NCBI GenBank assembly: GCA_000934665.2
Contig: KZ538675.1
Location: 1-54,503, forward strand
Length of the DNA stretch: 54,503 nt
From: Catajapyx aquilonaris
Lineage: Eukaryota
Direction: 5' to 3'
The translations under genes were made by a program, and so were the position numbers. Within the stretch, counting starts at the first letter, position 1. Each line of letters starts with the position of its first letter. The notes under the pieces are model-generated. The model made no database searches. It was not told where the DNA came from and saw only the letters and a program-made list of their open reading frames with translations. This document shows, one piece after another, positions 4,920 through 50,585 of the stretch.

Positions 4920-5072
4920 TGTCTCCTAACCGCTCCTACCCCAAAGACCTGTACGGCTTGGGAGACCCTGCTAGTAAACTAGAAGCTACCACCAGCATAG
5001 CTCTTGCATGGAGTCATAGGATAACACAAGCTCCCCCACCGTCGCAAGGTAGAGATACCATCAGGGGGGATC
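4920..5072 (-). mobile_element. Non-LTR retrotransposon (RTE-like) 5' leader remnant
   Basis: The minus strand reads accttgcgacggtgggggagcttgtg...gagctatgctggtggtagc...agggtctcccaagccgtacaggtc, resembling RTE/BovB-type 5' ends from memory. A related copy lies at about 20955-21085. Confidence 0.5.
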
Positions 5073-5982
5073 CTACCTAGCCTCGCTTATGGAGCTTAAA
5101 CCTATCTACGATCTAAGTGGTTTTGCTTTGTAATGTCTATTCAGCAGGTTTGTTGTAATTGCCATTGAATAACGACTTAGGCGGCAGCAAGAAGTGGTCC
5201 AAGGAAAATGTCTCCTGGCCACACCCGGAGAGGAAAATTCTGGGAAAATTACAGCTTGCTCCCGGCTTGCTCCTAATTACCATCGGTATCCAGTTGGCCA
5301 GGAAATGAGATCTTACCCTTTCTTTGTCCAGCATCCAGGGTGTGGTCCGGGACCTCAAGCGGCTTGGGTCCACCCACGTCCAACTTTCCTTTCTTCTACT
5401 TGGCGTTGCTAGGTGTGGTCAGTGAGGCTAGCCTGGAGAGAGGGTAAGGATGGTGTGGGCAGGAAGTGGGCTGCTGACTCTGCACAAAATTTAGACCTTG
5501 GACTCTGCTCTAAACATACCATGGTGGCTACGTCACCTTCAGCCAGCATCCAAACAGGGTGGCCAGACCACTTCCAGTCTGCCTGCATTTTAATCCAGCA
5601 AGGACCTAAAGACACAACCATGGATGCAACGTAGGGGGGTTTGAGATTTAGAAGTTCCAATGTATATGGAAATGGGCATGAAAATGTGTGCTGTTGGGGC
5701 CATTTGTAAATATTGTGGGGACATAACGTCAAGGCTTCTTTGAATCTACCCATTATGAAAGTGTCCGTCGCAGTATATGGTATACAGTACTGGTATACTT
5801 ACAATTTGTTATACAGGATCATAAGAAGATAAATTCCAATGTGCAGGCAGAGGCTTTAGAAGTGGTCAAGATTTTTTTGGCATGTTAGTTAGGTTGTGAA
5901 CACCCCCCCCCTNCCCCCCCCCCCCCCCCCCATGAAAATCTCACAGGTACCTGTACGCTACTGGTTTCATGTGCTTTTTTTT

Positions 5983-8744: not shown

Positions 8745-19163
<10,419 letters not shown>

Positions 19164-23300: not shown

Positions 23301-24045
23301 TGAGCTACCAATCAGATCAAGTAAAGAGCCAGTTGCTGGCCCAAAGGGACATACATATCAAGAATAATTCCTTGCCCCCAAATGAGAGGGTATTAGAGCC
23401 ACCTCAGGCACTGATCTTTGGACGTGGAAGTATTGCCAGCCTTACAAACTCCGAGGACTTTAGTGATTTGACCCAATGTAAGTAGGCCTACATAAAAACA
23501 ATGGATTGATTTATTTAAATTTTGTTCTCTCATACTGATATATGCCACCTGGAATAATAATCAGCTTACCTTTACATCAGTAAAAATATCAACTCCAGCA
23601 TGAGATGAGATGCACTGGTCTTGCATATTAGTGGCTGATAAAGGTGCTTAGTGTGTCAGTATGACATTTTCACTTGCCCATAGTCTTGGCAGCTAACTGA
23701 TAAGTAGGCAGTCCCCCATATTTCCATCGTCAATAACAATGTGAACCAATAACTTTGATTATACTAACTCTTGCTATACATAATTATTTTGTTCGCAGGC
23801 AACTACTTGGCAGTTCCTATCACCATTGTGTATTGGGCTATTCTTGCTCCCAAGAAACTTCAGGGAGAAGTAGAGGCTTTTCTCGAAATACTGATTGAAG
23901 CTGCACACAACCTAGGCTTAATATTGCCGAAGCCTTACTGCTTGTGAGTAACAGGATTTGTCACATATAGAGAAATAATACAGGGTGTTCCAAAGCACTT
24001 ACAATTCATAAAACACTTATTTAAGGCACTTGTAAAATTTGTTTT

Positions 24046-24129
<84 letters not shown>

Positions 24130-26449
24130 GATACCCTGTGATAGGCCCCTTGGGCCTCTTAGGGGATCATCTTTTGAATTACCGACTTTAATCATTTGCC
24201 TGAAATGTGATGGATTTTGACAGTGGGAGGAAACGGGAGAACCCCGAGAAAACCCACGCGAACACGGAGAGAACCCATCGAAACTCTATCCACATAAGTA
24301 TCCTCCGTCCGACCCGGGGATCGAACTCGGGACCTTAGAGGTGGAAGGCTGCGGCGCTAACCACTCGGCCATAAAATTTATATGTTTTAAATGCATTTAT
24401 TTCATGCATACCAAGATCTTACTTTTTTATTTGATGCCATGGTTATTTTTGTATTTCAATCGCGTAAGCAGCACACACATTGACACATGTAAACATGTAA
24501 GTTACTGAACATATCACAAATCTTGAAACCTTCAGAAAACATTGAGGTGAACATGTCATAGTATGTAAAAGCATTTATGCTGTAGTAGCATGAACAGTTG
24601 CATAAACGTTTGATTTGAAATGCTTTTTTTAAATACACATTGACAACAAGATCAGGACAGTTTCTTAAATACTTAAATATGACAATTGACCATTTGATGG
24701 AGTCACCTGATCACTGTATGTACTGTATGATCCACGCCACGTAAATATATGCTTTTCCAGCACACAAAACTTACTCCCCATTTCATGCCCTGTGTTCCAT
24801 TTCTTCATATGTTCATATGATATGAAAGCACATTGGTAATTTTCCCATTTTCCACACCTACCCTTTCATGCCTTTCCCTCCTCAAAGCAATGCAGACATG
24901 CCACATGCCCATTTTTAGGTCTAAAAAACATGTCAGAACCATTATTTTTTATGGTCAACTTGGACGTATGTTTTTAAATAAATTTTACAGTTGTCATATA
25001 GTTATTGAGCTCAATATAATGACCTGTTAATGGACAAGTTTGCAATTCATCCCTGATCAGGTCCACTGTCATTACTACCATTACTATAGTAGGCCACTAC
25101 ATAATAGTTTTATAATACTGTGATTAATAATTGTTAAAGGAATTTTAGAGTGCTTATTCATATGCCAGCTGATATGAAATTTCTGACATCTGGCACAAAC
25201 TGGCTCCACAGATTCTTGGAGTCTATTGTCAAATTTTCATTGCAGAAAATATCTGTCTAATGGAAAGGCAGAGACATACACCTCAACTGTGGAGTTCCTC
25301 CAGGCAAGGTGTAAGAAGGACCATGAAGTGGGCTTGCAGCTGGTCCTTACCATTTTAACTCAACAGGATCAGATATGTTACGGTGCCTTGAAGACGTTAT
25401 GCCATTCTAAACTGGGCATTGTCAACCAGACACTTGTCGGCACCAGCATCATAAGCAAGAAAAACAATCCCTACAATCTGGAGGAGACAGCTACTCGCTT
25501 GGCTTCCCAGATAAATTCTAAGCTTGGTGGGGAAGCATGGAACATTGACTTCCCTGTCAAAAATCACATTATGTTTGTTGGAGTGGAAGTGTCCCAGGAT
25601 TCCACAGACCCTTCTGTAACTGTGGTTGCTGTGGTGGCCACTACCAATGCAAATTGCAGCCAGTACTACTCTGTGGCTCATTGGGAGGCTTCCAATCATT
25701 CCACACTGGCCACTTGGATTGGGCATGATGTGGCCAAAGCAGCCACGATCTACGCTCGCTGCAATGGTGGGCAATGGCCTGTGTATGTTGTGGTCTACAG
25801 GAATGGGGTCATTGACAAGCTGGAATCAGTTGACATGATGGCAAAGGAGGCAATAAGCATTAAGAATGCATTGAGGATGACCTCACCCAAGGTACAGTTT
25901 TTAAAATTATTAGTAGGAAATCGAGCTAATGTATGCAAGGGAGTAACTTATAAAATGCTATTTCTATCAAAATAACTGGTTGTTACCAATTTAACTACCT
26001 ATGAGTATTGCTATGCATCAAAGGTGTTACATCTGTGCATAATTGGAAAACATATATTTTACCAGCCGTGTAAGATGGCCTTTCTGGTGATCAATGAGAA
26101 CTGCAGTGCCCCTCGGCTGATATGGGATGTGCAGGCCATCCCTCTTGGAACAGTTTTGGACCAGACCTCACCTGCAACTGGCATGAGAGAGTTCTTCCTG
26201 GCATCCTCAAGGGGCCCCAAAGAGAAAACAGCTCCTGTTCAGTACTCCTTCCTCTGCAATGAGCCAGGAATAGATGTAGAAAAGCTGCAAGCACTCACAT
26301 TTCTTTTAACATTCATGTATTTCAACAAGTCTAGAGCCATTGCCATACCTGCTCCATGTATGTATGCACAGAATCTGTCAAAAATGGTAGGGAAAACAAT
26401 GCACTCCCTCCCACATGAGAGTCTGTGTGACAAGCTGTTTTATTTATAG
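20350..26449 (+). CDS. piwi: Divergent PIWI-clade Argonaute (N-PAZ-MID-PIWI), 7 exons, about 1072 aa, predicted non-slicing
   Basis: Exons 20350-20538, 21352-22296, 22473-22991, 23087-23477, 23799-23943, 25246-25891 and 26066-26449 total 3219 nt and are open and phase-consistent. PAZ: LVGQSVQATYDKMVYTV...SQYYEQMYGL...DQPLL...LVPQLC. MID: YGALK, NQT, QINSKLGGEAW. PIWI: MFVGVEV, VVYRNGV, PLGTVLD, PAPCMYA, C-terminal DKLFYL*. Exon 1 is the least certain. Confidence 0.9.
20955..21085 (-). mobile_element. Second degenerate RTE-like leader remnant, in PIWI intron 1
   Basis: tctcctaccccc-aaagac...gcttgggtgac...aagctaccac...tagctctt...caagcccccacc...gcaag aligns by eye with 4930-5050. Confidence 0.5.
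24048..24128. repeat. (AAT)27 microsatellite, forming the 3' tail of the adjacent minus-strand SINE
   Basis: Perfect AAT run read directly. Confidence 0.95.
24129..24371 (-). mobile_element. tRNA-derived SINE in PIWI intron 5
   Basis: The minus strand begins tggccgagtggttagcgcc (A-box) and contains gagttcgatcccc (B-box), a central gtgggttttctcggggttctcccgtttcctcccac and an (ATT)n tail. Confidence 0.85.
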
Positions 26450-27727: not shown

Positions 27728-30700
27728 ATGGACAGATTCGGCGAGAGCAACTACCGAGACGGCGGGGATGATGAAGGGTGAGGTGGCAGCAGCGGGATTT
27801 GTCAATCCAGCTGATTGATTTGTGAAATATTTTGCAGGTTGACGGAAGAGGTAGAGGCCCTCAAAGCGATCTTCATGGAAGAGGTGGAGGTCAACTACAA
27901 TGACCAGTACGTATGGATAGGTGGATGAGCATGGTGGAGGTTTCTAGTTAAAGTTACTGAGGAATTGACTATGTAATCATACTGGCGTGCTGCCCACTAC
28001 TGCCATATATGTTGACTTGCACAAGTGTGCAATCACCACGTTCTACTGGTATTACAGATTTGAATTTTTTTCAAGGCTGTCGGATGGGGGCCACAGCTCG
28101 CGTTGCGTATGGATGGGCAGTGAAAAGCTGTTTTTATGAATTAATTTTTGGCATGTTCTGGTTGCTTTTGAAAGTGAAAATATGGGAGCATGATGTGGAT
28201 AGAGCTCATGAATTAGACAGTGGCTGGCAACATATAAGGTCACTACAACAAATGTAAGAAAAAGACATTATCCTCCCAGGAAGGGGTTCTCATGGAGATT
28301 ATATTCAACACCTACGAATAATGGTGGGATGTCAATTGCTATAATGTCAATCTCTTGCAGTGTCTGTGATATTTCTTGATTATACTTATCGACCCAAACA
28401 CAGTAATCAGTATAGGAGGGGTTTTTGAAATGGTTTGCTGAAATGGTAGAATGTGTACTGCTGAATCATCATGCATTAGTACATTTTGGTACAGCCTGGT
28501 GACTCGTGTGGTGACTGCAAGCAATCTTTCGAGTAGAAATATTACCAATACATGAAATCAGCCCACTTTTCACCTTCCGTGAATTGCATTGGAATTATAA
28601 CAATTTTGTTAATTTTCAGAGGGAGACCTGTGGAAATAGTGACTACTTTGCACCCTGCAACAGCAGAGGATACTGAGCATCAGTTTGTACGTGTGACCTT
28701 AGTTGTGATTCTTCCTCCTAACTACCCTGACTGCAGCCCTGAAGTCCAGATTCGAAACCCACGAGGTCTCTCTGATGAACAACTGGGAAAGATGCGCAAG
28801 GTCTGCAAGACTAAGTGTGAGGACTACCAGGGCACTGCTGTCATATATGAGCTTATAGAGGTACAGTAGATTGATAAGCTTATAGTTTGGAATGTGATCA
28901 TAATTTCTGCAATGACTGTTCTTGAAGAATTTCATTTAGAGTAACAAATTGTATAGTAGGATGGGAGACCGAAGCAGTTTGGAGTAGGGGATATGGTGTC
29001 CGACTGCTAATCGGGAGGTCCTGGGATCAAATCCCGGGGCCGGCAACTCTGACCGTGGTTTTCTGTGGTTTCCCACGCTGCATGCGATTGTGAAATGGTG
29101 GAGTTATGATCACCTTTAGTTTTCTGGCCCCCCTTGCAATATAGATGCCATCTACGAATATATCAGATTAGTGTAATCGCCAGACCTTCAAAACTTAGCA
29201 AAGGTCATCTCTGTACGTGTTACCGTTTTTGAATTTTAAAATACTTGCCATGACTTTTGACTCAGCCCGTGTAACTTAAAATTCATTGGGTCAGAGATGA
29301 CCAAAACATAATAAAAACCATCCTTACGCCGCCTATGATGAAAAAGAGGCGTTATAATAATTATTTACTTCCCAAAATCATGAATGTATGCAGTACAGGG
29401 TTAAACTACTTAATATGTGAGGGATAAGGATGGCAGAGTTCAGGCCATGTCATGTAGCCTCTGAGGACCTGAGTTAGATCACCTGATTGGACCAAGGATT
29501 TTTTTCAGAAAGAGTTTCAGTAGATCCTCTTCTTTGATTTTTCTGGGCTCTCTGGTTACCTCCCACAATCCATAGAAGCACATAACTTATTAAAGTTATA
29601 AACTGAAAATATGATCCTGAAGAGACTACATGCCTATCAGAGGCTTGAATCTGCTGGACTTCTCCCCTCGCACCACCCAGATATCACTTGCAATGCCTGG
29701 TATCTGTGACGCAATGGTCTCTAACATCCAATCTCGGAACAGGTTTCTCTCGCCTGGGCTGGCAGAAATATGAATTCTATGTGTACCACGAGAGAGTTGC
29801 ACAAAACACGAGACAATGCATGTCTGCAGCCAGTGCAAGCAAGCAGAGGTGCCCAAACTGGGGTTTCCAAGAGGTATCGGTCCTCATGGGTTACCTGAAG
29901 GGCCATGAGAATTTGGCAGGTATGGTGTGTTCTGTGCTTCTGCCCCACCCTGCCAAATTTTCAGGCCCTCAGGGATGCCTGGGAAGGCCGCTGCTTTCAC
30001 ACAGTGAAAGTGTTACATTTATGTGCTGGAAAAAGCAATGACGAAAGCTATTCACAGTAAAACATCTATAAAAGTCGAATCTCCATGGGACCGGGAAAAA
30101 ACTTTGAGTTATAGAAGATTCGAGATAGAGAAGATTGGAATTTTTTAAGCATGTAACTCTATAAGGAAGCCTACCTATGAGCCTACCTTTATATCATGTG
30201 ACAAAAGGTGTTCAAAACTTAAAAACAACTGTCACTACAGTATCACACTACAATGTGACTCCTCATTGTTTTGTTGTAAAAAAGTATGTTATTTAATCAA
30301 AGGCAGATGGGAATGTCTGGGCCCATGGGACCTGGTGCAGATGGCATGAGTCATTACTGGTAGACTGAGATCAGGAAAGAGACTTTCTGTGCATGTGGCC
30401 TACTCTCAAACCTTCGGCTGGGAAATAAGAAAATTTTCTGTACTCGCCAACATGAACTTCGACTTAGGGAGCCTGAAAATGCATCAATATCCCATCGTAA
30501 GGCCCTGTCTGCACTTCGAGTTATAGAAATTCGAGTTAGGGAAGTTTATTTCTTATTATTTTACATTGTGACCAACCAAGCTCATAATTTTCTTCGACTT
30601 ATAGAGAACTTCGACTTATAGCTAAGGTTTTTTTTCTTCTTCTTTTTCAAAGTGTACCCCGCGATAGGGCCTGAGGCCCCCTTGGGGGTGGGGGGGTGGA

Positions 30701-33700
30701 ATACCACCATAGGGTGACTGGGAGGGGATGTACAAAGGGCACGTGCAATGTCTCTGATTGGTCATTTTGTGAACTCCCCGGGGTGGATTACAGGATTAGT
30801 CTAGTGGCGATTCCACCCGAGACGAAGCCAGAGATGGCCCAACTCTGCACGAGATGAAGGGGGGGAACCCCAGGCTGGGATAGCATCCGGGACCTTAACA
30901 TCCGTGGGTGCATACATTACAGCAGCGCCACTTTGCCTCCCTGACTAGTAGAAGTTTTACTGTATTTCCATCTGGTGTGTTTTTTAAAAAACAAAATACT
31001 GACATGAGGAACATTTTTCCGAAGTAGCCTAACTTGGTGTTTGGATGAATGGTGAGGAAAGGGGACTATTTTGGTTGGGAAACTCGAAAAACGGCTTGCG
31101 AAAGAAGAAGTGACTCATGTGATTCGTACGTGCCTTTTAGTTCACGGTTCAGTCCAGTTTTAAAATGTCGGGGAAGAGGAAGGGGTTGACACGAGTTCAA
31201 CATATTGCCCGAGTCCGGGCTGATGGTCCAATGGATCAGGAAAAATTATGATTTTGCACCATATTGAGGTAAGGTGCTTATTTTTGCTCTCCCCATTTTC
31301 CTCTCTTTCTAGCGGGCAAAAATATTAGTAATGTCCTTGATCTGGTTATAGCGGAAATGTGTCCATAACGGAAAATTCTTGGGGTCCCATGCGATTCCGC
31401 TATACACGGGTTTCATTGTACCAACCTAATTCCTCTTTGCAATGAGTGGATGAGCGCATTACATTGTCCCTTATTTTTGCAAAGTTCCTAGTCACAGCTG
31501 CAAGCGTTTCACAAGTGATCCTACATACCTGTTTTAAGAGTTGGTTTTTTTCTCTGTTGCACCCGCAGACAGTAAAGGAAGTGTTGACCAGCAGCAATAC
31601 ACCAACTGGTCAGTGTCCCATCTGCCTGTGTGATTTCATGGATGGAGATGCAGTATCCAAAACCGAGTGCTACCACCACTTCCACTGCTACTGCTTGGGG
31701 ACTTACGTGCAGAAGTGTCTGGAGGAGCACAAGCAAAAGCAAGCCGAACTACCACCCTGGCAGCAGAAGCTTGATGTCAAGGTAGGAAATATGCCTTCAT
31801 TTATTCTCTTTGTACATTACACGAGGTAACTGCACCGCTTGTAGTGGAGGGCATTTTTAACCAATACAGTATAAGGCCCTGGTCATTTGAGAATAAATCT
31901 GTGACATCATAAACGACTAGCAGCAACTATCAGTGTATAAGATTCAGTTGCAATACCTCGAGCAGTATGGTTTTTGGAGGCGGTGCTATCAGTGGAAGAG
32001 GGGCATGGCCTCAATGTTGCAGAAGAATGGTATTTGTAATATTTTTTTGAAATGTCTAGCAGGCAGGTGTTAAGAGTCAATTGATTGTTCAGATGACTCT
32101 CAGGCAACTTATCTCCATGAGATACGATGCACATGTCACCAGAGTAGTACCCAGATACCAAAACATTACATCTCTCTCTGGGCTTGCATTCAATTCAGTT
32201 CTAGGATTCACAGTTTCTGGATGTAAATATCAGCAGTACTATTAAATATTTGTGCCTTGGTAATGGTTGCCTTCTACATCACAATTGCATTACGAGTTTG
32301 CATAAATCTTTTTTCAGATTTTCTTGGATTTGCAGTTTCACTTTGCACTTAATAATTTATGTGGTGGTATTTGAGTGTTAAAATGTTAACCTTTAACTAC
32401 GTAGGTGGAGCCTGAGGGGCTCCAACGGTATATTTAAATATCTGCTTATCAACTAAATTGTTATATTGGACTTTTCACATACAGAAAGTACAGTTCAGAT
32501 CATTAGGCTTCCGAAAACGTAAAAATCTCACACTGAGTCAGCATATTCCGACAGGGAAAAAATTTTAATTAAAAGGTTACATCATGTTTGAGCTGCTCAG
32601 GCTTCACCTACATAGGTAGAGCTTGAGCTGTTCCAGGAGGGACCTGTTCCTCATGACGAATTTTTTTCAACCAAAGAATAGAGACTAAAAATTTTTTTTC
32701 TTTCCTTTTCATTCTTAGGAAGGTTTTTCTGACAAAGTCACGGAAGGACAGGGAAAATAAAATTTAATGAAAAAGTTACATGCGTTTAAATAGTGCTTGG
32801 ATCCTCTCAGGCTCCACCTACGAAGTTAAGGGTTAAGCACATTTTTTTATGTCCAAAGTTTTGTCGATGTGAACTAAATGTACAATTACATATATTGCTT
32901 ATGGACTTTCTGGTGAAATAGATCTTGCTAGATATTTAGCAGTTGCAATGTATTTACAACCATAGTACACATTCTAAATTTTCTAATGTCACTGCATTAC
33001 CAAGGATTGAATTAAACATGTCAAGAGTACGATACCAGATTTTTTGATTCTTCGATAATTAATTCTATACATCTTATGGAAGGGACAAAAAGGTCTGTCT
33101 ACAGTACCGTACCACTCATAAAGAATGGTACGATTCTATAGACGAAATAACCCCTGGGTCGCCAGCATGTTTTTAAGTGTTGCAAGGAAGTCCGAGAAAA
33201 GGGAATCAAAATGAAGGAAAAAAAGAGAAGAAAAAAGCAAGGCAACATCAAATCCTGGTTAAACATTTTGGTAATTGAAAATTTCATTTAAAAATCGGGA
33301 TGGGTCATACGAGTCGCTAGAGGTCAACCTTGCCCATGGGGTCATGGCGAATAAGGTTGGGAATACTGCTGGACATTGAGGATAAACATTTCGTCCATGG
33401 AGTCATACCATTCTTTATGAGTGGGACTGTACATTCATCAGGGCAAGGAAAATGCAATCCATGTTCTGTCTCAAGGAAACAGCTACAAGTTGGTAAAGAG
33501 GTGAATGTGCCAGTAAGTATACTAACCTTGTTAGGATTTTCAGGTGTGCATATTTGGTTGCCATTCTGATGCTTTATTTTTATTTTGTTTTGTTCAAAAC
33601 AGAAAATGTTTAGATCTCTAATCTCTTATTGAATGTGAAGTATGGCATGAGTTAGTCACATTTAAGTGATGTGACAGTGACTTGGGAACTAGGCTATGTA

Positions 33701-39700: not shown

Positions 39701-42700
39701 GCGCCACTCCGTCTCCCACAGGACCGTGATATTAATCCTAATGCATCCTAAGGGCATTCTTCTGGCTCCCAAACTCCTGGCATTAATATTTAATAATATT
39801 AGTATTTAACAAATTCATCGTTCTTGAACAAGATCCGACTTAAAAAATTGGTCATCATCAACTAGTGTCTGAAAAATTGATATTAAAATTCCGGCAGATT
39901 TTTAGTGCCTGCTGTGGCCATTTCAAGTGCAAGAAAATTTGCAAATTCTCGACTTTTGAGCCCAGGTTTTCACTACTCGGGGGACATAATTAAAAACTGA
40001 GTTTCACTTTTTTATGAGGAACAATGTCCAATAAAAATTGTTGCTGTTAACTGAAACTCAATCCTGAGAGGTTCCAACCGGTTTCAAGCACTTGAGAATA
40101 TGAGAGTTAGGTCTCCCTATTTTTACCTTCTTTGTGACCCCATGTAGCGTAAGTGTGAATTTTTCCTCATTTTTAAAACAAGTTATGAAATTCGTTAATT
40201 TTTGCTTTGAAAATGGTTTTTGGAGAATCACCCATATTATGTCGATCATGTTTTACAAGGGAAAGAGCGAAAACAGGGGTCCAATGTCGCGAAATTGACC
40301 AAAAACGCGAAGTTTTTTTTTGTTTTGTTTTGTTTTTTTTGCTCACGAACTATACACGTGTCAAGCTTCAAACTTGACACATGGCAACTTCTGGGAGTAT
40401 ATATTCATGTCACCAAATATGAAATATGTAGAGCAATTACATCGCAAATTTTCGGAGGTCGAAATTATTGGATTTGACCGATGTAAAGCGAGGCGCGTTT
40501 GTTTCTGGTTTTAATTTGGGAAGAAACCTACCTTTCTACAGCTCTAGAACATTTGAGGGGGGTGTTGGAAAAAGGTGATAAGTGATAACTCACAAAAGTG
40601 TAATTTTTCAGAAGAGTGAATTGAAGTTTGCATTTTTTTTTTTTCACAAATCATAGGGAATGCAGGTTTTGATCTAGTCTGTGTTGCCGTCTTGTACATG
40701 ATACGTGAACTTGGAGTATACCAAACTGTTTGTCATGTCTTTTACATAGTTGCGAGGTGTTCAGGTCAAAAATGAGGGTTACCACCTTTTTCCACCACAC
40801 CCCTCATTTAACTGCTGCACTAATGGGTTTTTTTCGTAACTTTGTAAGTCGCAAATCTTGTTAGATTGTGAGTGACCAACTCCTGTTACAAGTTATAATT
40901 AACTTTGCAAGCCTGCCATTAAACAAATACAATGACTAAAGATGGCGATGCTTAGATGCGTAACTTGTAATACCGTCAGAGGCGGGAATGTCATGAGATG
41001 GGATTGCAAAATGTTACTATCTACTAGACTATATTGATTGCATTAAGATCTGCTTCGACAATCTGGTTCATACAGAAAGTATTCTGATAATTAGGCGAAT
41101 TAATTTTCTAAGAAGTTAAAGTCAAACTTTGACTTGATTTTTCGACAACTTCTGATATTGTGTCAGATTGGATTTTCCCTCAAACTCGAAAATACCTAAT
41201 GCGTCATAAAGGGATTAAAGTTCATCATGGGCTGACCTCATCTCCATGCACATGATTTATCTCATTTGGAGGCTGGTAGTTTATTTGTTGCTTACCAGAA
41301 AGTTGGTGTTACATTGCAGGTTGTGCAAACTGTCAATCCCTGTACATTTCTCAAATTTGTTTTATTTTATTTTATTGGCTAATGTTAAGAGGTTGACAGT
41401 TCAAATAGGGTAATTTAATTACTGCTCACTTACTGCATGAAAATCAGGTGTTTGGTAATTTTGGAATAGTGTATGACTTTCAGTATTGTTGTGGGGAATT
41501 TCTAGTAATCTGGTTGTGATACACTTGACGCTATCACTTGACGCTAAATCTTGATTATAGATAATTATAATTATGTTGGTGTTTGTTACAGTGCAGGTTG
41601 TGCAACAGTCCCTGTGCATTTATCAAATTTGATTTTTTTAAATGGGCTTATGTTCCAATAAGGTAGTTTAATTACTGCTCACTGATTACATTGTTGTGGG
41701 GAATTTCTAGTAATCTGGTTGTGATAACCTTGGTGCTATCTAAATCTTGATTATACATAATTATATAAGTTCCCTTGTGAAACGGGATGAATAGCAAAGA
41801 TTGACAGTGTGTTTTTAAACTTGTTGCAGTTGTCATCGCTTTAAAATCATGGCTAAGTTCCTAACACAAGACAAGATGGTTTTGACAAAAACCTTCCTGA
41901 TTCTTTCTCTGTTCAGCATAATAATGATATCAGAATCCAGAGTGGTGAGTGACACAGTACCAATCAGTGCATGTGTATAATGAGTATGTGCTACTTTGAA
42001 ATAATGACAGACCCATTTCATGACTGTTGCATCCATGGCTATGGTGTTTATATTCAAACGAAACATGTTTTCTTAAAAAAAATACAGATTATTTGTCCAG
42101 TCTGCCGAGAGCCCGTTTTGGTGGACTTGCAAAGTCTTCTGGCTGCACCATTGCCCCAGGAAGAGTCGTCTTCCGCCTTTTCCCCAACTGATGAGCTGAA
42201 GGAACTGCGGCAGAAAATGGCAGATTTATATGTGAAGCAGAAGGAAAAGGGCGGGATTATTGACTTAAAAGAGGAGGAGAATCGGTTCTTACTGTTTACT
42301 GGAGAGGTGAGGGCAGGTTATGTTTCACATTTTGCAGGTGAAGGCTTGTCCTGACATGAAACTAATGCACTGGGTCCAATGGAAAAGTCAAGGCATTTGT
42401 TGTATAGGGGTATTATGATTTTCAGTTATTGGACATGAAGTTCAATAAAACTTGTGTTAAATTATGGAAGCAACGCAACATACTTTTTACAATGAGAATG
42501 CCTTGATTTTTACCTATGATAGAACATATGGGACATATTAAATTTAAAGTGTACTCTGCAATCTCTTGATTATCTGAATGTGAATGGCTATTTTTTCAAC
42601 AGAAGGTAACTAAGGGAAGTATATGCAAGGCAGTTTGCGAACCCCAGGATCTGATAATGGAAAATCCTGAGGATATGCTCTTGAGCACGATAATCGATCC

Positions 42701-45700
42701 ACAAGACAAGCAGACTATTAAGGACTTGATTGACACAGAGGGCCTCATCTACGCTATTGGCTACACTGCAGATGAAGTCTGGACAGATGACCAAAAGGCA
42801 ACAGCAGATGCAGCAGTCAAGAAACAGGACCGCTCAAGTGTGTATTATCAGCTCCTGGTAACCCACTACCGGGTAGATGTCCACTTTGGCCAGGTCGACA
42901 GCCACCGCAAATGGATTAACATAACGTACTTCCGCTTGAAAGCTTTTGTCCCAGACATAATCTATCCAACTGAGGTTGAAGTACATGACTACACGAAGTA
43001 TCAGTATCAGCTCTACATAGGGTATACTGCCAAATGGGTACACAACATAGATGGCCCAATGTGGGACAGGGCAATGTGGGACCATCTCCACCTGGAGCCT
43101 CATCATCCACAATTCTTTGGGGATGCAAACATGACCCAACGTTCTCTCCAGGAGAGCATCATTGACATGTTGGCCTGCCGTTGGGAGAGGACTCTCAAGG
43201 GAGATCTCAATGTCACCAATAAAGTCCTGGCCTATGTGGAAGACAAGTACCTGGAAAGGTACAACCTACATGATAGGGCAATTGTAAGGGGAATTCTAGA
43301 CGACATTGTCAATTCAGATTGAAGTGTCACGAGGCACAAAAGTGTAATAAGGGCCTGTTATTATATAAAGCATATTAGTTACCACATTTCGTTTAATTTT
43401 GTTCACTATTGAAGCTTTTTAAGGGACATTTGCGCATATTAGTAACAATGTGTATGTGAAATAAAACCCTGCTACCGTCATATTTCTTTTTTCCACTTTT
43501 CTCAGTAGCATTCTGAAGAGGATTATGACATTCAGATTTGGTGAGGTACAAATGGTTATGCATATCCAATAATGGATTGTAGAAAAATCTGACTGTAACC
43601 TAGGTGCAACCAGGTACTCAGGGCAAGAGCATTCTGCTCCTTGCCATTAACTGGATGCTGTTAGCTGTAGTACTCTGGTTAGAAAGGTTTTTGATATTAC
43701 CCTCATTGAGTAAGATGCTGGTGCAAAATGCAAACATACTAATGTTTCGCTTTTCAGGTCAGGCAAAAAAACTTGAGCCATGTAGTTTTCCAATTGCAAT
43801 TAATTATTATTTGCTTAGGGAATCATGCTCTCAGAGAAAAACTGTAAATTTTCTAATAGCCCAGCTATATTGAGGAAGCAAAGGATAGATTAACTGTTTC
43901 TCCAATCAAGTGTCAAATTATAGTTTTCTTGATTTTTTATTCTCCAGACTGGAAATTCTAAACTCAAAATAATTTTATAGTTTGTCAGTTAGCAAATGGT
44001 ATAGGCCGGGGTGTCTTAAAAAGTATAAAATTTGCATATTTTTGCCAAAGAATTACACAGAATATTACTTTTTTCTGCTGCTACCTTTTCCTTTCCTCTC
44101 GGAGGAATCTCTTTAGCATCATATTGATTTTCACCTATTTCCATTCCCAATATTATTACTGTCAACTCAGATGCATGTAGCACTGAACAAGACTTTGTCA
44201 TCGTCATATACTGACCCAAATATTGCCAATACATGTGCGGGGTGAATTGGACAAATTGCATTTTGAACTATCACCCAACTTTCCAATTGTCATGACAATC
44301 AAATACAGACAGTTTCTGGTTCACGAATAACTTGGCGGATGTGAAGGGAGATCCCAAGAGTGTGCTGCCACCTTTAGCAACTTTGATGGACAGATAGGGG
44401 TTTTAGCAAGTCACATAACCCTTCTTGAAGTTTCAGATGAATTTGTATTGTTTGTCCTCTAAAATATTCACTGAAATATTAAAATAATCCATTATGATTG
44501 CATCTCTTTCTTAATTGCAGCTGGTTTTATTCAATCCACAGCAAAATTACAGTGTCTGAATTATTTTAACTTGCGTGTTTATTGGAACAGAATATGAAAA
44601 ATCATGACCTTGTGGCACAAACCTGTTTTCTTATGCCTAGGCCCACAAGGTGCAGTAGAAATACAGTATCTCCCATGTCAGATTCATGAGAGCTTGATAT
44701 CACATACAACTCTTGGTCAAGTTTTGAAGTTTATTACATTTATTTATATGAAGGAGCAACTTCAGGATTGATTTTTCCATGCCATACAATAACATTTATT
44801 GGAGATTATAATAATGTCAAAATGTAAAAGTGATGGATTTTGCCTATGTAATGTCGGCGTTGGCAAAATAATGTTCTCAAGTTAAGAGTTGTCTTTTTTT
44901 TCATATTTGAAATGCCCACAGAAGGTACTAAGAACCTAAAATCATCTTACAGATTCAGAATGGAGCCCAGTTACAGTGTGGAAAACGAAACGACGATATG
45001 ACGTCGTCATTTTGTTCTCATGCAACAATAGGAGTCAGATCATCAGATCGTCGTTTCGTTTTCCGCACTGTACAGTTATTTTAAACTTGTCTGAATTTGT
45101 AGGTTAGTGTATAAGCATTCGATCAAACATCTAATGTTAGTGTGTCTGTCTGGGAAAGCCTTCACCTGTGAAAGGGAGAACAAGCACATGTTTAATATGG
45201 CTGGCACTAACATCTCCCTGTTCTAGGTGGAGGAACCAAGAAATGAAGACATGCCACCACCATTCCAGCCCACGGACACACCTGAAGATTCTCGGCATCC
45301 CAACCCATTCATGAGTGCTATGGAATTTTCAAGGCCTGGGCCTAAGCTCAAACTTCCACCAGCCTTCACTTCTCTCAACACTCTTCACACTTATGAGGGT
45401 TGGCATGGCAGCAGCCAAAATGGCAGTGACATTGCATCCAAGCCCTCCAGCCAACCCATGATTTCAGAAGCTGAGAGTTTGGAGACAGGGGTGGGGAACA
45501 GTCATGGGGGTGGAAGGAATTCAGATGGTAGATCCTATGGTGGAAGACCAAAGCATGGGCGATGTCATGATTTGGCTAGTAGGAGGAGACCAACTCCAGC
45601 GGCGGCTGGAGATGAACAAAAAGGTGGGAGTAGCAGCAACAATGGTACTGCCACTGCTCAGATACCAGGGCCACCTCCTAGGCCCAAAAATCCACCTCCC

Positions 45701-45781
45701 CATCGCTCACGAAGACCCCCTCCTGGTTTCTCCCGCAAACCACCCCCCTCCAGATCTCCTCCTGGATTTGAAGCTAGCTGA
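27728..45781 (+). CDS. RNF25: E3 ubiquitin ligase RNF25 (AO7): RWD domain, split RING-H2 and Pro-rich tail, 6 exons
   Basis: Exons 27728-27777, 27838-27906, 28620-28860, 31569-31781, 42088-42306, 45227-45781. Motifs: EEVEALKAIF, LHPATAED...QFV, PPNYPD, NPRGLSD, GQCPICL...ECYHHFHCYCL, CPVCRE and QKEKGGIID. Confidence 0.95.
28965..29075 (+). mobile_element. tRNA-derived SINE fragment
   Basis: tRNA-like head ...gactgctaatcgggaggtcctgggatcaaatcccgg followed by gtggttttctgtggtttccc. Confidence 0.6.
30055..30962. mobile_element. Tc1/mariner (Tigger/pogo-like) non-autonomous element with a SINE inserted near its right end
   Basis: Termini cagtaaaacatcta and tagaagttttactg|ta, with internal repeated ttcgagttatag/ttcgacttatag motifs. 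Confidence 0.6.
30625..30942 (-). mobile_element. tRNA-derived SINE, same family as 39390-39718
   Basis: Shares attggtcattttgtgaactcccc and cgaagccagagatggcccaactctgcacga with the 39.5-kb copy; T-rich tail on the plus strand. Confidence 0.8.
32390..32832. mobile_element. piggyBac-like MITE with TTAA target duplication
   Basis: ttaa|cctttaactacgtaggtggagcctgag...ctcaggctccacctacgaagttaaggg|ttaa. Confidence 0.85.
33102..33429. mobile_element. Tc1/mariner-type MITE flanked by TA
   Basis: ta|cagtacc..ccactcataaagaatggtacgattc pairs with gagtcataccattctttatgagtgggactg|ta. Confidence 0.8.
33969..34357. mobile_element. TIR MITE flanked by TTAA
   Basis: ttaa|agtgggttctacacagtcggtc...gaccgactgtgtagagcccact|ttaa. 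Confidence 0.8.
34362..34555. mobile_element. PIF/Harbinger-like MITE flanked by TAA, abutting the previous element
   Basis: taa|ggctgcatttacctatgagggatttgat pairs with atcaaatcgctcatatgtaaacatggcc|taa. Confidence 0.65.
35024..35328. mobile_element. Tigger/pogo-like MITE flanked by TA, spanning an assembly gap
   Basis: ta|caggttgagaatcctttat...ataaaggattctcaacctg|ta. Confidence 0.85.
35185..35220. other. Assembly gap (N run) adjacent to poly-C
   Basis: 36 N bases read directly. Confidence 0.98.
39390..39718 (-). mobile_element. tRNA-derived SINE with apparent target-site duplication (ggaccgtgatatt at about 39373 and 39721)
   Basis: Minus-strand head gggagacggagtggcgccgcggtaacg...ggttcaatcccc (B-box); homologous to 30625-30942. 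Confidence 0.85.
40553..40808. mobile_element. MITE-like element with imperfect TIRs of about 28 bp
   Basis: tgaggggggtgttggaaaaaggtgataa pairs with ttaccacctttttccaccacacccctca. Confidence 0.65.
41315..41765. repeat. Imperfect tandem duplication in RNF25 intron 4
   Basis: tgcaggttgtgcaa...ttaattactgctcact...ttgttgtggggaatttctagtaatctggttgtgata...ctaaatcttgattata occurs twice (starting near 41315 and 41592). Confidence 0.8.
42657..43322 (+). CDS. Intronless nested ORF (221 aa), HD-like putative metal-dependent phosphohydrolase resembling DUF5662
   Basis: Clean ORF with motif order HFGQVDSHRKWI, VHDYTKY, WDHLHLEPHHPQFF, IIDMLAC. The frame stays open back to the acceptor ttttttcaacag|42603. 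AATAAA at 43460. Family assignment is from recall. Confidence 0.75.
   Translation: MENPEDMLLSTIIDPQDKQTIKDLIDTEGLIYAIGYTADEVWTDDQKATADAAVKKQDRSSVYYQLLVTHYRVDVHFGQVDSHRKWINITYFRLKAFVPDIIYPTEVEVHDYTKYQYQLYIGYTAKWVHNIDGPMWDRAMWDHLHLEPHHPQFFGDANMTQRSLQESIIDMLACRWERTLKGDLNVTNKVLAYVEDKYLERYNLHDRAIVRGILDDIVNSD
43460..43465 (+). terminator. Candidate poly(A) signal for the nested ORF (intronic site within RNF25)
   Basis: AATAAA about 140 nt after the stop, followed by a T-rich tract (tatttctttttccactttt). Confidence 0.55.
44974..45070. mobile_element. Small TA-flanked palindromic MITE
   Basis: ta|cagtgtggaaaacgaaacgacgat...atcgtcgtttcgttttccgcactg|ta. Confidence 0.8.
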
Positions 45782-48173
45782 CAATTACAGAACTTAGGCT
45801 GTAACTGGCCACCACAAGGCAGTTCCAGGCACTTGCTGCTACTCTTACTGGCTGTTGTGAGCTGCTTAGTAGGGTTCTGTGACTGGATTCGTAGTCACCT
45901 CTGTGGTTGTGTCAACAGTGCATGCAGGAGGACAATTAAGTCTCCCATTCCTCTGCTTTTGCACAGTTGTACCATATATTTGTGTCCATAATGCTCATAA
46001 CAATAAATTAATTTATCAGCGTCAGTTATTAGTTGTTTCTCAATAACATGAGTATGTACGGTACAGGACATCCGAAGGCGTCACATGCTGGAGACCAGGG
46101 AAACTGGAGCCATACTAAATAGCTGATTACATTGGAAGTGAATATTTTTCTGAAAATAATAACCAGTTTTGAAATCGTTTTGCAGCACCAGCAAGTGACA
46201 TATGACAATAAATGTCAATATTGTGAATAATTACAAGGCATCACTTGACTCTTATGTGGCTTGTTTTTGCTGCAAAATAACTTCACATGCCAATAAAATG
46301 CATTGAAATGTAAAGAAAAATACATTTATTTATTATTCTGTGCCTCAGCTACACATTTGGCACCTAACAGCTGAGTGGCTGTACCAGTGTCAGTCAGTTG
46401 GTAGAATCCACGTGGCACAGAAATCACACAAGTATGCAGCAGGTACATTTTTATAATTGTGGAGAGCATTTGTTGGAATAGGAGATTGGGAAGAATATGT
46501 TAAAATATACGGAGTGATCCTCTGCCCAAGTTTTTGATCCAACAAGAGGGTGTGGGGGAGAGTTGATAGTTTAGTCATCCCTGGCAAACAGTCATGCAAA
46601 AAGGCTCGAAGTTGACTGGAGTTTGAATAGACTCCAGTAGTGATCCATCAACTCTCCCTGCCCCCACCCCATTAGATTGTCAGCTTGGGCGGAACACACT
46701 ATGTGTGGGAAGAAGGTTTGAAATATTGCTGCTGTGAGAAAACCAATAACAGTGACCACATTGGCATCAGCAGATGTAGCATGGTTTTTCTAGTCCTACA
46801 ACAAGATTGCTTAGACATATTGAATTACATTACATCACATCATGATATGTTTTACATGTGCACATATGGTTTTGGAAACATAATTTAAATATAAATACAA
46901 CATGTAACTGAACAAAGAAACAGTATTCTAAACTAGAACAAAGACCAATATACCTTTCAACTGTCTATCAAACAATAACGATTTGAATCAGAAACCTCTC
47001 CTTTTTCAATTGAATTTGTCATGGTGTTTTTTTAACAATGGGCATACATTCATGGTACAAAAATATTTCAAATTTCCAAAGTTATGTGTGATGCTGTTGA
47101 TAAAATGAAGCCAAATATACAGTAATTGTACCACTTGAACCTATAGTACTGTGGAACCACTGGTATACATGACGGTAAAGAGGCCATAAGGGCTAAAAAT
47201 AGGTCGTCATCAGGATTCAGGGAGAAAATATACCAGGTGGAAGACTAATTTTACCCAGTATCCTACTCTTAAATTACCAATACTTAGGCATCCTGCATTC
47301 ACTAGAAGTGTTCATGGCATTAACATAATTTTATAATACATTAAATAATTTCTTCTTACAGAAATAGGATATGTAGTTGAAATTTTTCAGTCATATTGCA
47401 TCTAACACCCGTTATTACTTTTTTATCACTGGATATTTTCAAGTCAAGGTGATTGTTAATTAATTTTGTGGATAATGTGAACTTTTTATAGCTAATGTAC
47501 CAATGTGCAGCTCAAGTTGACAGGACAATAGGGAAAAAGCTACTGATTGCGTATTCCAGCAACCTACTGGGAAAAATAATCCAGGGCTACATCACTTGTT
47601 GTGATTGTTACTTCTTATTAAATTGGCTGCTGGAGTAAATCACAACCTCTTCCTTGCTTACGTTGGATTGTGCACAACGCTGTATATGCTCATTAACTTC
47701 GATAAAAGTTTTAGGTTCAAAATTAGCACTTGTTTTCTTATGATTATGTAATATGACCTGGATTCAGTAAAAGGTTTCTGAGTGATAACAGGAACGGATT
47801 GAACGTATTACTTATAAGCATGCTAAATTACTCATTATAAATTTTCACTAACTTCCAGTATACAGTATAAATAAATGTTAAAATAAACTTATTTTCATGT
47901 ACATTCATTACTATACAATGTCATCTACAACTAATTGAGATGTAGACAATCAACAACTCCACGGATAAAGATTGTAGAGATAGTACATGTGACTTCTGCA
48001 GAAGGAATTACAAGTGAAAATTTAGAATGAGAATCTACTGTGTCTTATAACCTAATAAAGACAGGAACTTGCACAAAGTGGCACAACAATTCAACATATA
48101 CGCATACAACATTACATGAACATATTAACACAGACATATTGTAACAATGACATTTGGAGGTCATTATGAGAGA

Positions 48174-50585
48174 CTAGTTGAGTTTGTTTGAACACCATAA
48201 AACAAAGGGTAGAAGGATGTGAATGAAACAGGGTTGGCTCATTTGGGCCATACTTCTGTACCACACATCATCCTGTCCTCTGCGACTTTGTATTGGCCTG
48301 TATGTTTTGTTTAAAACCTGCATATCTGGTGCATAGATATGTCGAAATCCTTCCATCTATACGAAAGGGATGTGAATGTTATTTTACAAGAACATCATCA
48401 GAAGTTGTGTTGACATACCTGCTGCAGAGACACATGTGATGGATCTTCAAAAACTATCCATTTCACTCCTACTGTGCAGTCAGGGGTGGTCAGTGATCCA
48501 TTGTAATAAAAGAATCGGTCAATTGCAACCGGTAACAGGTCTCTCAAGGGTGGCAGATCCTTTATTTTGGAATTGTTTCCAGAGAGGTTAATTTTGTGCA
48601 GCAAGCTTAAGGCAGGCCTGTATTGGTAGTTTTCCGTTGCATGAACCTTTAAAAAATCAAAAGCATTGGTGAGCCATTGCGGTGACGAATTCTCCTGTTT
48701 TACTTTTCTTTTACTCTCTCGGTGCTTATCAACGTACTTCAAACAGAACTCCTAGGACAAGAACACCTCTGTTTGCCAAAGCCTGCCTCATTGTCCTGTA
48801 CTTCTCATTTGCATGAACGAAGTGCGCCTCCAGGGGATACCTGCAGATTATTATACAGTAAGTAGCTGTTGAAGTAAGTAGCAGGTTGCATATGATATAA
48901 TACAGTGAAATATAGCTAATGCGGACTCTGGATACAGCTGAAACTTTACCTTGGTCCCAGAGGAGGATATTCAAAGCATGTAATTAAAACATGTTCAGTA
49001 TGAAAAATATTTACGGAAGAGAGTGTGCATCTGAGGATTAGTCCATGATTGTCATTTGTCACATTAGTGTTCGTTAGAAAAATAGTAATTGCAACTTTGA
49101 CTTTACTGTTCATTGTCGATCCTATGTTCACTGCCATGAAAATGCGTCTCTCCCCAGTGAAAATGGATCTCCTGAAAAGCATAGACATCTTTCCCTAGAT
49201 GAGCGCCAGACACCGTTGGGGTAGAGCCTTTCCATTCTGCTAATAATCTTACTGGAAATAATTAGAAGTGAACAACAACCATTATTTTGCAGCACATGTT
49301 TACAACATCCTGTCAGGTGTTGGATTTAAAAATTAGCAACAAGACATACCTCCATGTCCTGTGTTTTGTAAAGTAAAAGACTTTGCCTTCTGATGGTAGT
49401 TTTTGAAGATAAGAGGCGGAGCACCAGGAATTGCATTTGCCTTTGCTTCATTTGAATTTATGTCAATTGGTGACTGGTCATGATTATGATCATGACACTG
49501 TTGCGGCCACTTATCAGGTCCTGTGGAATTCAGATATATTATGCAAATGTAAGTAAAGTGATATCAACTGCATCTTACCATTCGGATGTTCATATCCCCA
49601 GTTAACATACTGAGAGCAGCAATCTGAAAATATATATTAATTTGAATTTGTATTTTTTCAGGAACAAGTGTGGAATAAGAATACATTTTCTCCCACATAA
49701 CGTACGATGTAAACGGTACATGCCATTACACTCTTGCGCTTCGTCCTCGACTACACACTTTGCGCACTGTAATTACATCTAAATTGTAATAACACCTTTA
49801 CCATCCGGTCTGCATGGAGCCAGACCAAAGCCCCCATTTTCATACTAGATCATATAGAATTTCCCCTACACTGCCCATGGCCTAATGATCATGTTAATAT
49901 GGCATGTAACTGATCGTGATGTGGCATCATGACACTCTGTGTCTTCTTTCTAATTAGGTGTCCATCGCATTCATTCATTATGTAGAGGCACATTATCTGC
50001 CCGAGACATCTCTGAAGCGCACCACCGAGTAAGTGAATATTGATGCGGTAATTAGAGATTTACCTGCTTGAAATTATGGATCATATGACACGTAACGCGA
50101 GCCATTCCGTAACGTTATTGCAAACTTCGTAATTTTAATTTAAGAAATTATTATGCGTACGTACAGGAAATAGGTGATGACGAATTCGTGCTGGACGTAG
50201 CGATGCCGTCTCCTATAAAACAGACATTCATCTTCGTTTGCATTCATTGGAGCCGATTAGCCCTGACAAGTATCCGGAAAGTCCGTTTTTTTAAAAAAAT
50301 GTAACGTTACATAAAACCGCGTTTTAATTACGTGGCTTAAAAATTGACGCCCTGATATAATAATGTGATTTTAAAATTATTTGATCCTTAAAAATCGCTA
50401 AAAAGGCAAATTAAAAAATTAGTAACCTCCTATAGTGAGCTTAATCAGTGTATGGTCTGCTGCTCTAACGTACGTAAATTAATTACGTACAGTCGTACAC
50501 AAAAGTGAACTTGCCTTTCCGAATTCAATTAAATTTTTTTTGTCCAGTTTTCACCTACAGACATCAGCAAGATTATCAATAGCAT
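48174..50585 (-). CDS. Alpha-carbonic anhydrase, secreted or GPI-anchored type, 7 exons
   Basis: Exons 50585-50555 (signal MLLIILLMSV), 49623-49579 (WGY), 49520-49350 (GPDKWP..QSPIDI..NTGHG), 49251-49107 (EIHFHWG..GSEH), 48840-48738 (YPLEAHFVH), 48646-48419 (YNGSLTTPDC) and 48356-48174 (YRPIQ, hydrophobic tail). All three Zn-binding His are present. Confidence 0.93.

Follow-up and report, generated by a model that had tools for sequence, protein, structure and literature searches.

The HD superfamily is defined by an ordered H...HD...D metal-ligand motif, and a GYP signature after the HD motif defines the HD-GYP phosphodiesterases of cyclic di-GMP (c-di-GMP). For the family considered here, DUF5662 (Pfam PF18907), our literature search found no paper under either name. 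Cyprinivirus ORF57, to which DUF5662 may be structurally related, is an essential virulence factor of Cyprinid herpesvirus 3 (CyHV-3), with unknown function and a homologue in crocodile poxvirus, according to PMC5588920. A nested open reading frame (ORF) that contributes to a host transcript is known from CSB-PGBD3, where CSB exons 1–5 are reported to be spliced to the PGBD3 ORF nested in intron 5 (PMC3459987, PMC2268245). Here, we describe a DUF5662 ORF of 221 amino acids (aa) in a stretch of 54,503 nucleotides (nt) from Catajapyx aquilonaris (GenBank assembly GCA_000934665.2, contig KZ538675.1, positions 1 to 54,503 of the forward strand), referred to as the window. The ORF has the same orientation as an RNF25-like gene and lies within the last intron of that gene. 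The best reading is that it is part of an animal/eukaryotic branch of DUF5662 that is old and diversified. We consider it rather probable that it is a long-resident, single-exon nested gene in the genome of this invertebrate-grade animal, translated independently of its host gene into a probable nucleotide phosphoesterase.

The ORF is intact and occupies a single exon (Table 1). It is part of a frame that stays open from stop to stop over 250 codons (42570–43322), the last in-frame stop on its 5' side being the TGA at 42567–42569, and its product contains the motifs H76-x6-H83, H110-D111-Y-T-K114, H143-x5-H149-H150 and E166-x3-D170. Over aa 76–206 (profile positions 5–144 of 156), the product matches PF18907 with an E-value of 2.7e-11 and a score of 43.8 bits, the cut-off being 27. 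Given the 250-codon span, a DUF5662 match above the Pfam gathering cut-off and 158 relatives at E ≤ 1e-3, the ORF is clearly more than a chance reading frame. The initial annotation of this DNA had reported an intact, intronless 221-aa ORF with these motifs on the RNF25 strand and had likened it to DUF5662; coordinates, translation and the Pfam match bear out both statements. A second copy of the ORF was not found anywhere in the window. An antisense ORF at 42834–43265 was rejected as a shadow of the coding frame.

Conservation within the family supports the same assignment. Alignment A1 consists of the query and 49 relatives with a single domain, and all 50 members match PF18907. Six residues are invariant in A1 (H83, H110, H143, H149, H150 and P151), and the query keeps all six. 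Residues conserved in at least 90% of the members include D111, K114, G122, Y123, W136, E166, S167, D170 and M171, and the query retains every such column except S113, which is Thr (HDYTK, where the consensus is HDLSK). The ORF adds a member to a known family that has not been characterised.

Table 1. Features of the nested DUF5662 gene and its RNF25-like host gene (window coordinates, unless given as aa of the ORF protein).
Feature	Position	Strand	Remarks
CDS of the nested ORF, 221 aa + stop	42657–43322	+	DUF5662-family, HD-like protein; ATG at 42657, TGA at 43320–43322
N-terminal helical extension of the ORF protein	aa 1–72
Conserved core of the ORF protein	aa 73–221
AATAAA, candidate poly(A) signal	43460–43465	+	138 nt 3' of the stop; predicted from sequence
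Candidate 3' splice acceptor (ctattttttcaacag)	42588–42602	+	predicted from sequence
18 stop-free codons in frame with M1 (KVTKGSICKAVCEPQDLI)	42603–42656	+	putative linker or 5' leader
RWD-domain exon, host gene	28609–28863	+	2day/2dmf match; Pfam PF05773 RWD, 54.5 bits
RING-finger exon, host gene (first RING part)	31611–31802	+	zf-RING_2, 27.5 bits
RNF25 penultimate coding exon (IICPVCREP...FTGE)	42088–42306	+	boundaries inferred from frame and splice consensus
Host intron holding the nested gene	42307–45226	+	2,920 nt
Pro-rich terminal coding exon	45227–45781	+	acceptor ttctag, phase 0; stop TGA 45779–45781

Next, we focused on the relatives of the ORF protein. An exhaustive phmmer search of 1.84 billion representative proteins returned the 158 relatives mentioned above, 68 of them at E ≤ 1e-10 and 11 at E ≤ 1e-30, with P0001 as the best match (9.6e-78, 40% identity). 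A word-based homologue search with the ORF alone gave no match at E ≤ 1e-3. The closest relatives are full-length stand-alone proteins of 220–250 aa from bivalves, a barnacle and eukaryote-like sources. The Met of the ORF aligns with the start of the stand-alone homologues; residues 1–219 of P0004 (224 aa), for example, align with residues 1–219 of the query, and both proteins begin with MEN. The N-terminal extension is common to the query and the animal proteins. A profile search with ten close sequences (alignment A2) found 24 proteins at E ≤ 1e-5, six of which carried organism names: two from Pinctada imbricata and one each from Mytilus edulis, Mizuhopecten yessoensis, Argopecten irradians and Amphibalanus amphitrite. 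These six are 218–291 aa long and 35–38% identical to the query, and the best of the proteins without an organism name, P0153, is 44–45% identical. Several relatives (P0001, P0002, P0003, P0005 and P0012) have arisen by tandem duplication and contain two complete DUF5662 units within 449–723 aa, and some of the tandem-unit relatives contain low-complexity runs typical of protist genes.

To place the query among these sequences, we built an unrooted tree of 137 domain rows, comprising the query and the retained matches, each covering over 130 of the profile's 239 positions, with shorter matches left out. The query falls in a 49-row clade with all six named animal proteins (Shimodaira–Hasegawa-like approximate likelihood ratio test, SH-aLRT, 84). 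Identities are 42–53% between bivalve orders, 37–43% between the barnacle and the bivalves, and 34–45% between the query and the others. As the last two ranges are similar, the query is as distant from the bivalves as another phylum would be. The genomic surroundings of several metagenome relatives are eukaryote-like: contig L004 carries an uninterrupted 222-aa DUF5662 ORF beside a HEATR1/BP28CT gene, and contig L010 a DUF5662 gene beside an AIG1-family GTPase. On the animal-like contig L013, a relative at 4989–5701 lies beside BAG- and WW-domain ORFs. Directly after HHPQ it is split by an intron of about 200 nt, which has GT...AG ends and contains a pyrimidine tract; the frame then resumes with YWGDRSMPEEFLKESIVDM. 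This spliceosomal intron indicates that the family has resided in eukaryotic genomes long enough for intron gain in at least one lineage.

These results bear on the proposal that the gene arrived recently from a phage or bacterium, or is a contaminant. This proposal would agree with a Pfam family defined largely on phage proteins, and with language-model features, by which the nearest Atlas clusters are those of Uroviricota DUF5662 (0.96). However, a tblastn search of 50,697 phage records gave no match, and neither PHROGs nor NCBIfam matched the ORF. Motif-seeded scans of IMG/VR (68 candidate stretches) and of one genome each of 185,579 prokaryote species (30 candidates) yielded no confirmed relative, although distant prokaryotic members of DUF5662 could escape scans seeded in this way. 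The phage-like DUF5662 genes that appeared as weak matches in the metagenome scan, on contigs L018 and L021, reach 105.9 and 111.7 bits with the Pfam model, compared with 43.8 bits reached by the query, and it is with the animal proteins that the query shares its N-terminal extension. In addition, RNF25 exons flank the ORF on both sides within one contig, and the composition of the ORF is host-like (see below). We therefore regard recent transfer from a phage or bacterium, or contamination, as extremely improbable. The initial annotation had called the gene phage- or bacterial-type, a label that is not supported, as the nearest relatives come from bivalves and a barnacle and the phage and prokaryote scans gave nothing that could be confirmed. 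The phage-type DUF5662 genes themselves lie in dense arrays (3360–4586 in L021 and 4362–6069 in L018) with a gene for a DHH phosphoesterase directly adjoining; the arrays also hold a nicotinamide mononucleotide (NMN) transporter, an AAA/STAND NTPase and an isochorismatase-family gene.

The composition of the ORF resembles that of the exons around it. Its GC content is 0.468, its GC content at third codon positions (GC3) is 0.554 and its observed/expected (o/e) CpG ratio is 0.36. In the host exons, GC ranges from 0.42 to 0.53 and CpG o/e from 0.21 to 0.58, so that the ORF lies within their range, and the surrounding intron has a GC content of about 0.35. Together with the intron-bearing relative, this match in GC, GC3 and CpG o/e speaks against a recent transfer, and the horizontal acquisition suggested at first is not supported for this locus. 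A search for sequencing runs with this stretch listed four DNA runs from its probable source sample, no RNA run, and one run of unspecified kind from a second study; the latter contains 0.95 of the sampled words of the stretch, which also fits long residence. The same data argue against a passive insertion, that is, an unexpressed copy that is recently arrived or decaying and has no function. This possibility draws on the intronic location, on the lack of a recognisable promoter, on the fact that expression of the ORF is deduced from its sequence, and on the protein not being found in a collection of 5.8 billion proteins, for which the source annotation may have missed the ORF or the proteins of that genome may be absent from the collection. 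However, the frame is open over 250 codons in DNA of roughly 40% GC, all invariant and nearly invariant family residues are kept, and the predicted structure has very high confidence (see below). The depletion of CpG and the host-exon-like GC3 point to long residence, during which the frame would have broken without selection. A passive insertion is therefore very unlikely.

DUF5662 also occurs in RNA viruses. Five of the 25 long relatives that we scanned are Picornavirales-type polyproteins with an embedded DUF5662 domain (P0057, P0079, P0081, P0095 and P0120). RdRP_1 is present in all five. Three of them also contain a helicase for RNA, a 3C protease and a capsid domain of the Rhv type, and a calicivirus-type coat occurs in one. 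The DUF5662 domain lies between the 3C-type protease and the RNA-dependent RNA polymerase (RdRp) in P0079, P0081 and P0095, and after the RdRp in P0057 and P0120. In the tree, three of the four RNA-virus domains fall in a neighbouring clade of 27 rows, and the fourth, from P0120, is unplaced on a long branch. At the level of structure, the best viral match in BFVD is CyHV-1 ORF57 (E 3e-3, prob 1.00, TMq 0.58), followed by proteins of two arthropod RNA viruses, Hubei lepidoptera virus 4 and Hubei odonate virus 15. A viral link thus exists, to picorna-like RNA viruses, and on the unrooted tree the exchange may have run in either direction.

The ORF, or the ancestor of its animal branch, might accordingly have been captured from a eukaryotic virus, for instance a picorna-like one, perhaps independently in each lineage. 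Besides the embedded domains, their position next to the animal clade and the structural matches, this origin would explain why the gene is intronless here and on the eukaryote-like contigs L004, L007 and L008, and why its distribution among named animals is patchy, being limited to bivalves and a barnacle. We nevertheless find a viral derivation quite unlikely. None of the 31 stop-to-stop frames of at least 35 aa in the intron matches Pfam at E ≤ 0.01, so that no other coding remnant, viral or otherwise, was recognised there, and the Pfam scan of these frames and a repeat search found no viral or transposon remnants, terminal repeats, target-site duplication or poly(A) tail around the ORF. 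Moreover, the composition is fully host-like, the identities between phyla look like old divergence, and capture of a host gene by viruses fits the unrooted tree equally well. The initial annotation had raised viral acquisition; the link to viruses stands, for the polyproteins of picorna-like RNA viruses, whereas the phage scans gave no relative from this subfamily. Two related origins were considered and rejected: a retrogene, as neither a poly(A) tail nor a target-site duplication is visible after 43465, and transposon cargo, as no terminal repeats bracket the ORF.

To investigate the likely chemistry of the protein, we modelled its fold. AlphaFold2 run on A1 gave an all-helical model with a mean predicted local distance difference test (pLDDT) score of 96.3 and a predicted TM-score (pTM) of 0.89. 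When this model was compared with 48,161 representative chains by VIA-align, the six top matches were all HD-type cyclic-dinucleotide phosphodiesterases of the HD-GYP or PgpH kind: DvhD HD-GYP (9rbz, Z 6.1), PgpH (4s1b, 5.8), 9rc0 (5.6), Bd1817 (3tm8, 5.2), PA4781 (4r8z, 4.9) and 4mcw (4.8). These alignments cover 123–141 residues with a root-mean-square deviation of 3.6–4.5 Å, all over model residues 73–221, and many more HD hydrolases occur lower in the ranking. A second structure comparison, against the PDB, agrees (Z 5.8–5.1). As a lead only, once DUF5662 was removed, the nearest Atlas clusters by language-model features were HD families (0.75–0.79). The sequence has the ordered ligand motif of the HD superfamily (H83...H110-D111...H143...H149-H150...D170). 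Binuclear HD phosphodiesterases, PgpH among them, have metal ligands in the order H...HD...H...HH...D, which the query resembles at the level of the pattern. GYP does not occur in the 221-aa sequence, which instead has a conserved G122-Y123-T124 only 10 residues after the HD. An HD fold of the ORF protein is likely, judging from the model. The HD-like character proposed at the outset is therefore supported by the order of the His and Asp residues and by fold matches that are weak but agree with one another (Z 4.8–6.1), but not by the Pfam families listed for A1 members or by Foldseek at E ≤ 1e-3 (see below).

Clues to the substrate come from the relatives. The 25 long relatives include one RNA ligase fusion, one dUTPase fusion and one protein with a C-terminal BHMT fragment, and among 54 further longer relatives, 52 match DUF5662 and one also contains a Ham1/ITPase domain. 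The fusions to dUTPase, RNA ligase and Ham1/ITPase (P0147, P0091 and one member of alignment A3) have in common that their partners are all nucleotide or RNA-end enzymes. These partners suggest a nucleotide-type substrate, as do the DHH phosphoesterase neighbour in the phage-type locus and the fold matches to c-di-GMP, c-di-AMP and cGAMP phosphodiesterases. The ORF protein is thus probably a metal-dependent nucleotide phosphoesterase. We propose that it is made as a complete, stand-alone protein of 221 aa from its own ATG and belongs to a eukaryotic/animal branch of DUF5662, with an N-terminal extension of four helices that precedes a helical, HD-like core. Seven residues of metal-ligand type (H83, H110-D111, H143, H149-H150 and D170), plus K114 and E166, are conserved in the core, and the protein would bind two metal ions and hydrolyse a phosphoester of a nucleotide-type substrate. 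The candidate substrates are an (oligo)nucleotide, either cyclic or linear, an RNA end or a non-canonical (deoxy)nucleoside triphosphate.

The host gene can be classed as RNF25-like: the human RNF25 structures 2day and 2dmf are matched by its RWD exon (E 3.9e-19), and the gene has the feature that marks RNF25 members, an N-terminal RWD domain followed by a RING finger. The zf-RING_2 match covers aa 56–90 of the frame 31446–31829, and the second half of the RING is encoded by the penultimate coding exon, whose start is placed by inference. The donor of this exon is GAG/gtgagg. The exon ends in phase 0 at 42306, as the initial annotation had stated. The Pro-rich terminal exon, in which no Pfam match was found, is tentatively assigned to RNF25 from frame continuity. 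Within 41900–45900, no Rfam match was found at E ≤ 0.1.

The geometry of the intron raises the possibility that the ORF serves RNF25 as an alternative last exon. In this scenario, some RNF25 transcripts would join 42306 to 42603 and receive their poly(A) tail after 43460, which would yield an RWD-RING-linker-DUF5662 chimera that lacks the Pro-rich tail. A terminal exon is defined by an acceptor and a poly(A) signal, and both are present as candidates. The acceptor (ttttttcaacag, last base 42602) has a 7-nt pyrimidine run in a tract that is 55% pyrimidine; it is in phase with the donor at 42306 and is followed by 18 open codons that lead in frame into the Met of the ORF. The ORF has an AATAAA of its own at 43460, and further copies occur at 42444 (in the intron, 5' of the ORF) and at 43218 (within the CDS). 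The acceptor, the 18 codons, the phase-0 exon end and the AATAAA that follows the ORF had been pointed out in the initial annotation and are found in the sequence, as is a second 'cag' at the codon 42645–42647, which would start an exon at 42648 and has a poor pyrimidine tract. We searched for comparable acceptors with a criterion that was tuned post hoc to the candidate (YAG, an exclusion zone without AG, at least 55% pyrimidine and a pyrimidine run of at least 7) and found six in the intron and 76 on the + strand of the window. By chance, 0.04–0.06 phase-0 acceptors would be expected within the 87-nt stop-free leader, a figure that overstates significance because of the post hoc choice of criterion. 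CSB-PGBD3 provides a precedent for this arrangement (PMC3459987, PMC2268245).

Several observations speak against a fusion. An upstream open stretch of at least 18 codons occurs at 34% of the 243 intronic ATGs. Under a second crude filter (at least 65% pyrimidine, no run condition), nine intron sites pass, including the real terminal acceptor at 45226, whereas the candidate does not. The in-frame acceptor is only mildly unusual, and it would equally suit an intron in the 5' untranslated region (5'-UTR) of the nested gene. Among the 79 longer homologues (25 + 54), none has an RWD or RING domain. As the ORF has its own Met at the conserved start of the family, and as its close relatives are stand-alone proteins and none carries RNF25 domains, a dedicated fusion is disfavoured. 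From its sequence, the acceptor at 42602 could serve as the start of an alternative last exon of RNF25, could act in a 5'-UTR intron or in trans-splicing of the nested gene, or could have no role. We regard the alternative last exon as a legitimate hypothesis, but an unlikely one.

The reading of an old, independently translated nested gene has to be weighed against the following points. Nesting on the same strand together with an in-frame acceptor and a poly(A) signal of its own is the layout expected of an alternative last exon, and the low chance expectation for an in-phase acceptor, even from a post hoc test, points the same way. No promoter was identified in the 350 nt 5' of the ORF, a segment that is AT-rich with a CpG o/e of 0.12. 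Independent expression, catalytic activity and substrate class are all inferred from sequence and model, and as to expression this counts against the reading. With regard to the fold, Foldseek gave no PDB match at E ≤ 1e-3, only 14-3-3-like noise at E ≥ 0.3; all structural matches have Z below 8, a range in which a common helical arrangement is possible; a profile search of PDB sequences had no match at E ≤ 10; and of the 30 Pfam families that A1 members hit at E ≤ 5, the 25 listed include no canonical HD family. In the tree, the query is sister (81) to a long-branch group, and no starred clade holds it. Lastly, the 'animal branch' label derives from six named sequences and the context of a few contigs. 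All these points detract from the preferred reading.

The locus matters mainly because DUF5662 is unstudied and is shared between invertebrates and their viruses. DUF5662 extends beyond phages: a diversified branch of the family consists of full-length eukaryotic/animal proteins that have an additional N-terminal domain, and DUF5662 is also built into picorna-like RNA-virus polyproteins. The fusion partners and the cyclic-dinucleotide phosphodiesterase fold matches point to a nucleotide-esterase activity that can be tested. The presence of DUF5662 in RNA-virus polyproteins and the weak fold match to ORF57 suggest, as a speculation, a role at the host–virus interface, either in the control of nucleotide pools or in the removal of immune nucleotides. 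A bolder version, which is a long shot, is that animal DUF5662 proteins, their picorna-like counterparts and possibly alloherpesvirus ORF57 form one family of HD-type phosphodiesterases that destroy nucleotide immune messengers (such as cyclic dinucleotides of the cGLR/STING type) or sanitise nucleotide pools in a host–virus arms race, and that delivery as an alternative last exon of RNF25 couples ubiquitin ligation to the hydrolysis of nucleotide signals. If the RNF25 splice variant were true, it would be the second clear case of an intron-nested enzyme ORF used as an alternative C-terminus, and the first E3 ligase joined to an HD-like hydrolase. If it is not real, what remains is an ordinary nested gene from a family that has not been studied.

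The host intron and the rest of the window show some further features. A hairpin at 44972–45072, about 155 nt 5' of the terminal-exon acceptor, has 30-nt arms that are 93% complementary and a 41-nt loop. Its RNA fold has an energy of -49.8 kcal/mol (z -7.6), 0 of 200 shuffles fold equally well, and it has no Rfam match. The hairpin could be an element resembling a miniature inverted-repeat transposable element (MITE) or a structured intron element. An inverted repeat of 36 nt with 75% complementarity has its arms at 42321–42356 and 45147–45182, 15 nt inside the 5' end of the intron and 45 nt from its 3' end. Pairing of these arms may loop out the nested gene, and the repeat may also be due to chance. 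Read-through past the donor at 42306 meets an in-frame stop at 42352–42354 (...FTGEVRAGYVSHFAGEGLS*), followed by the AATAAA at 42444, and a short RNF25 isoform without the Pro-rich tail is conceivable by this route. The other genes of the window are animal genes with introns. They comprise an ordinary-looking Piwi-domain gene (21232–26449, +), whose long N-terminal exons have no Pfam match, and a nearby S6-kinase-like exon (12972–13343, -) and carbonic-anhydrase exon (48398–48751, -), which also look ordinary.

The locus can be compared with several known systems. The best structural matches to residues 73–221 are HD and HD-GYP phosphodiesterases (PgpH 4s1b, DvhD 9rbz, Bd1817 3tm8, PA4781 4r8z, 4mcw and V-cGAP3 5z7c; Z 6.1–4.3), but these are 8–13% identical to the query, which has neither their GYP motif nor their sensor or transmembrane domains, and the position of its GYT relative to the HD differs from that of GYP in HD-GYP enzymes. 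The match to cyprinivirus ORF57 is weak and purely structural: ORF57 has 453 aa, is about 16% identical to the query and is not among the 158 sequence matches. CSB-PGBD3 (the piggyBac ORF in intron 5 of ERCC6) likewise has an intronless ORF nested on the same strand, an in-frame acceptor and its own poly(A) signal, and a fusion transcript, which for the locus described here would be a prediction. Unlike PGBD3, the ORF described here encodes no transposase, is not bounded by transposon ends and has its own conserved start codon. The Picornavirales-like polyproteins contain the same DUF5662 domain, 27–36% identical to the query over the core, but inside a polyprotein and without the stand-alone N-terminus, and none falls in the tree clade of the query. 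With the rest of Pfam DUF5662, the query shares the same ordered His/Asp positions, but whereas phage-type members score 106–112 bits and have about 150–210 aa, the query comes from a eukaryotic branch that has diverged and carries about 70 aa more at its N-terminus, which is helical. The stand-alone DUF5662 proteins of bivalves and the barnacle are only 35–38% identical to the query, but they share its length class, N-terminal extension, motifs and tree clade.

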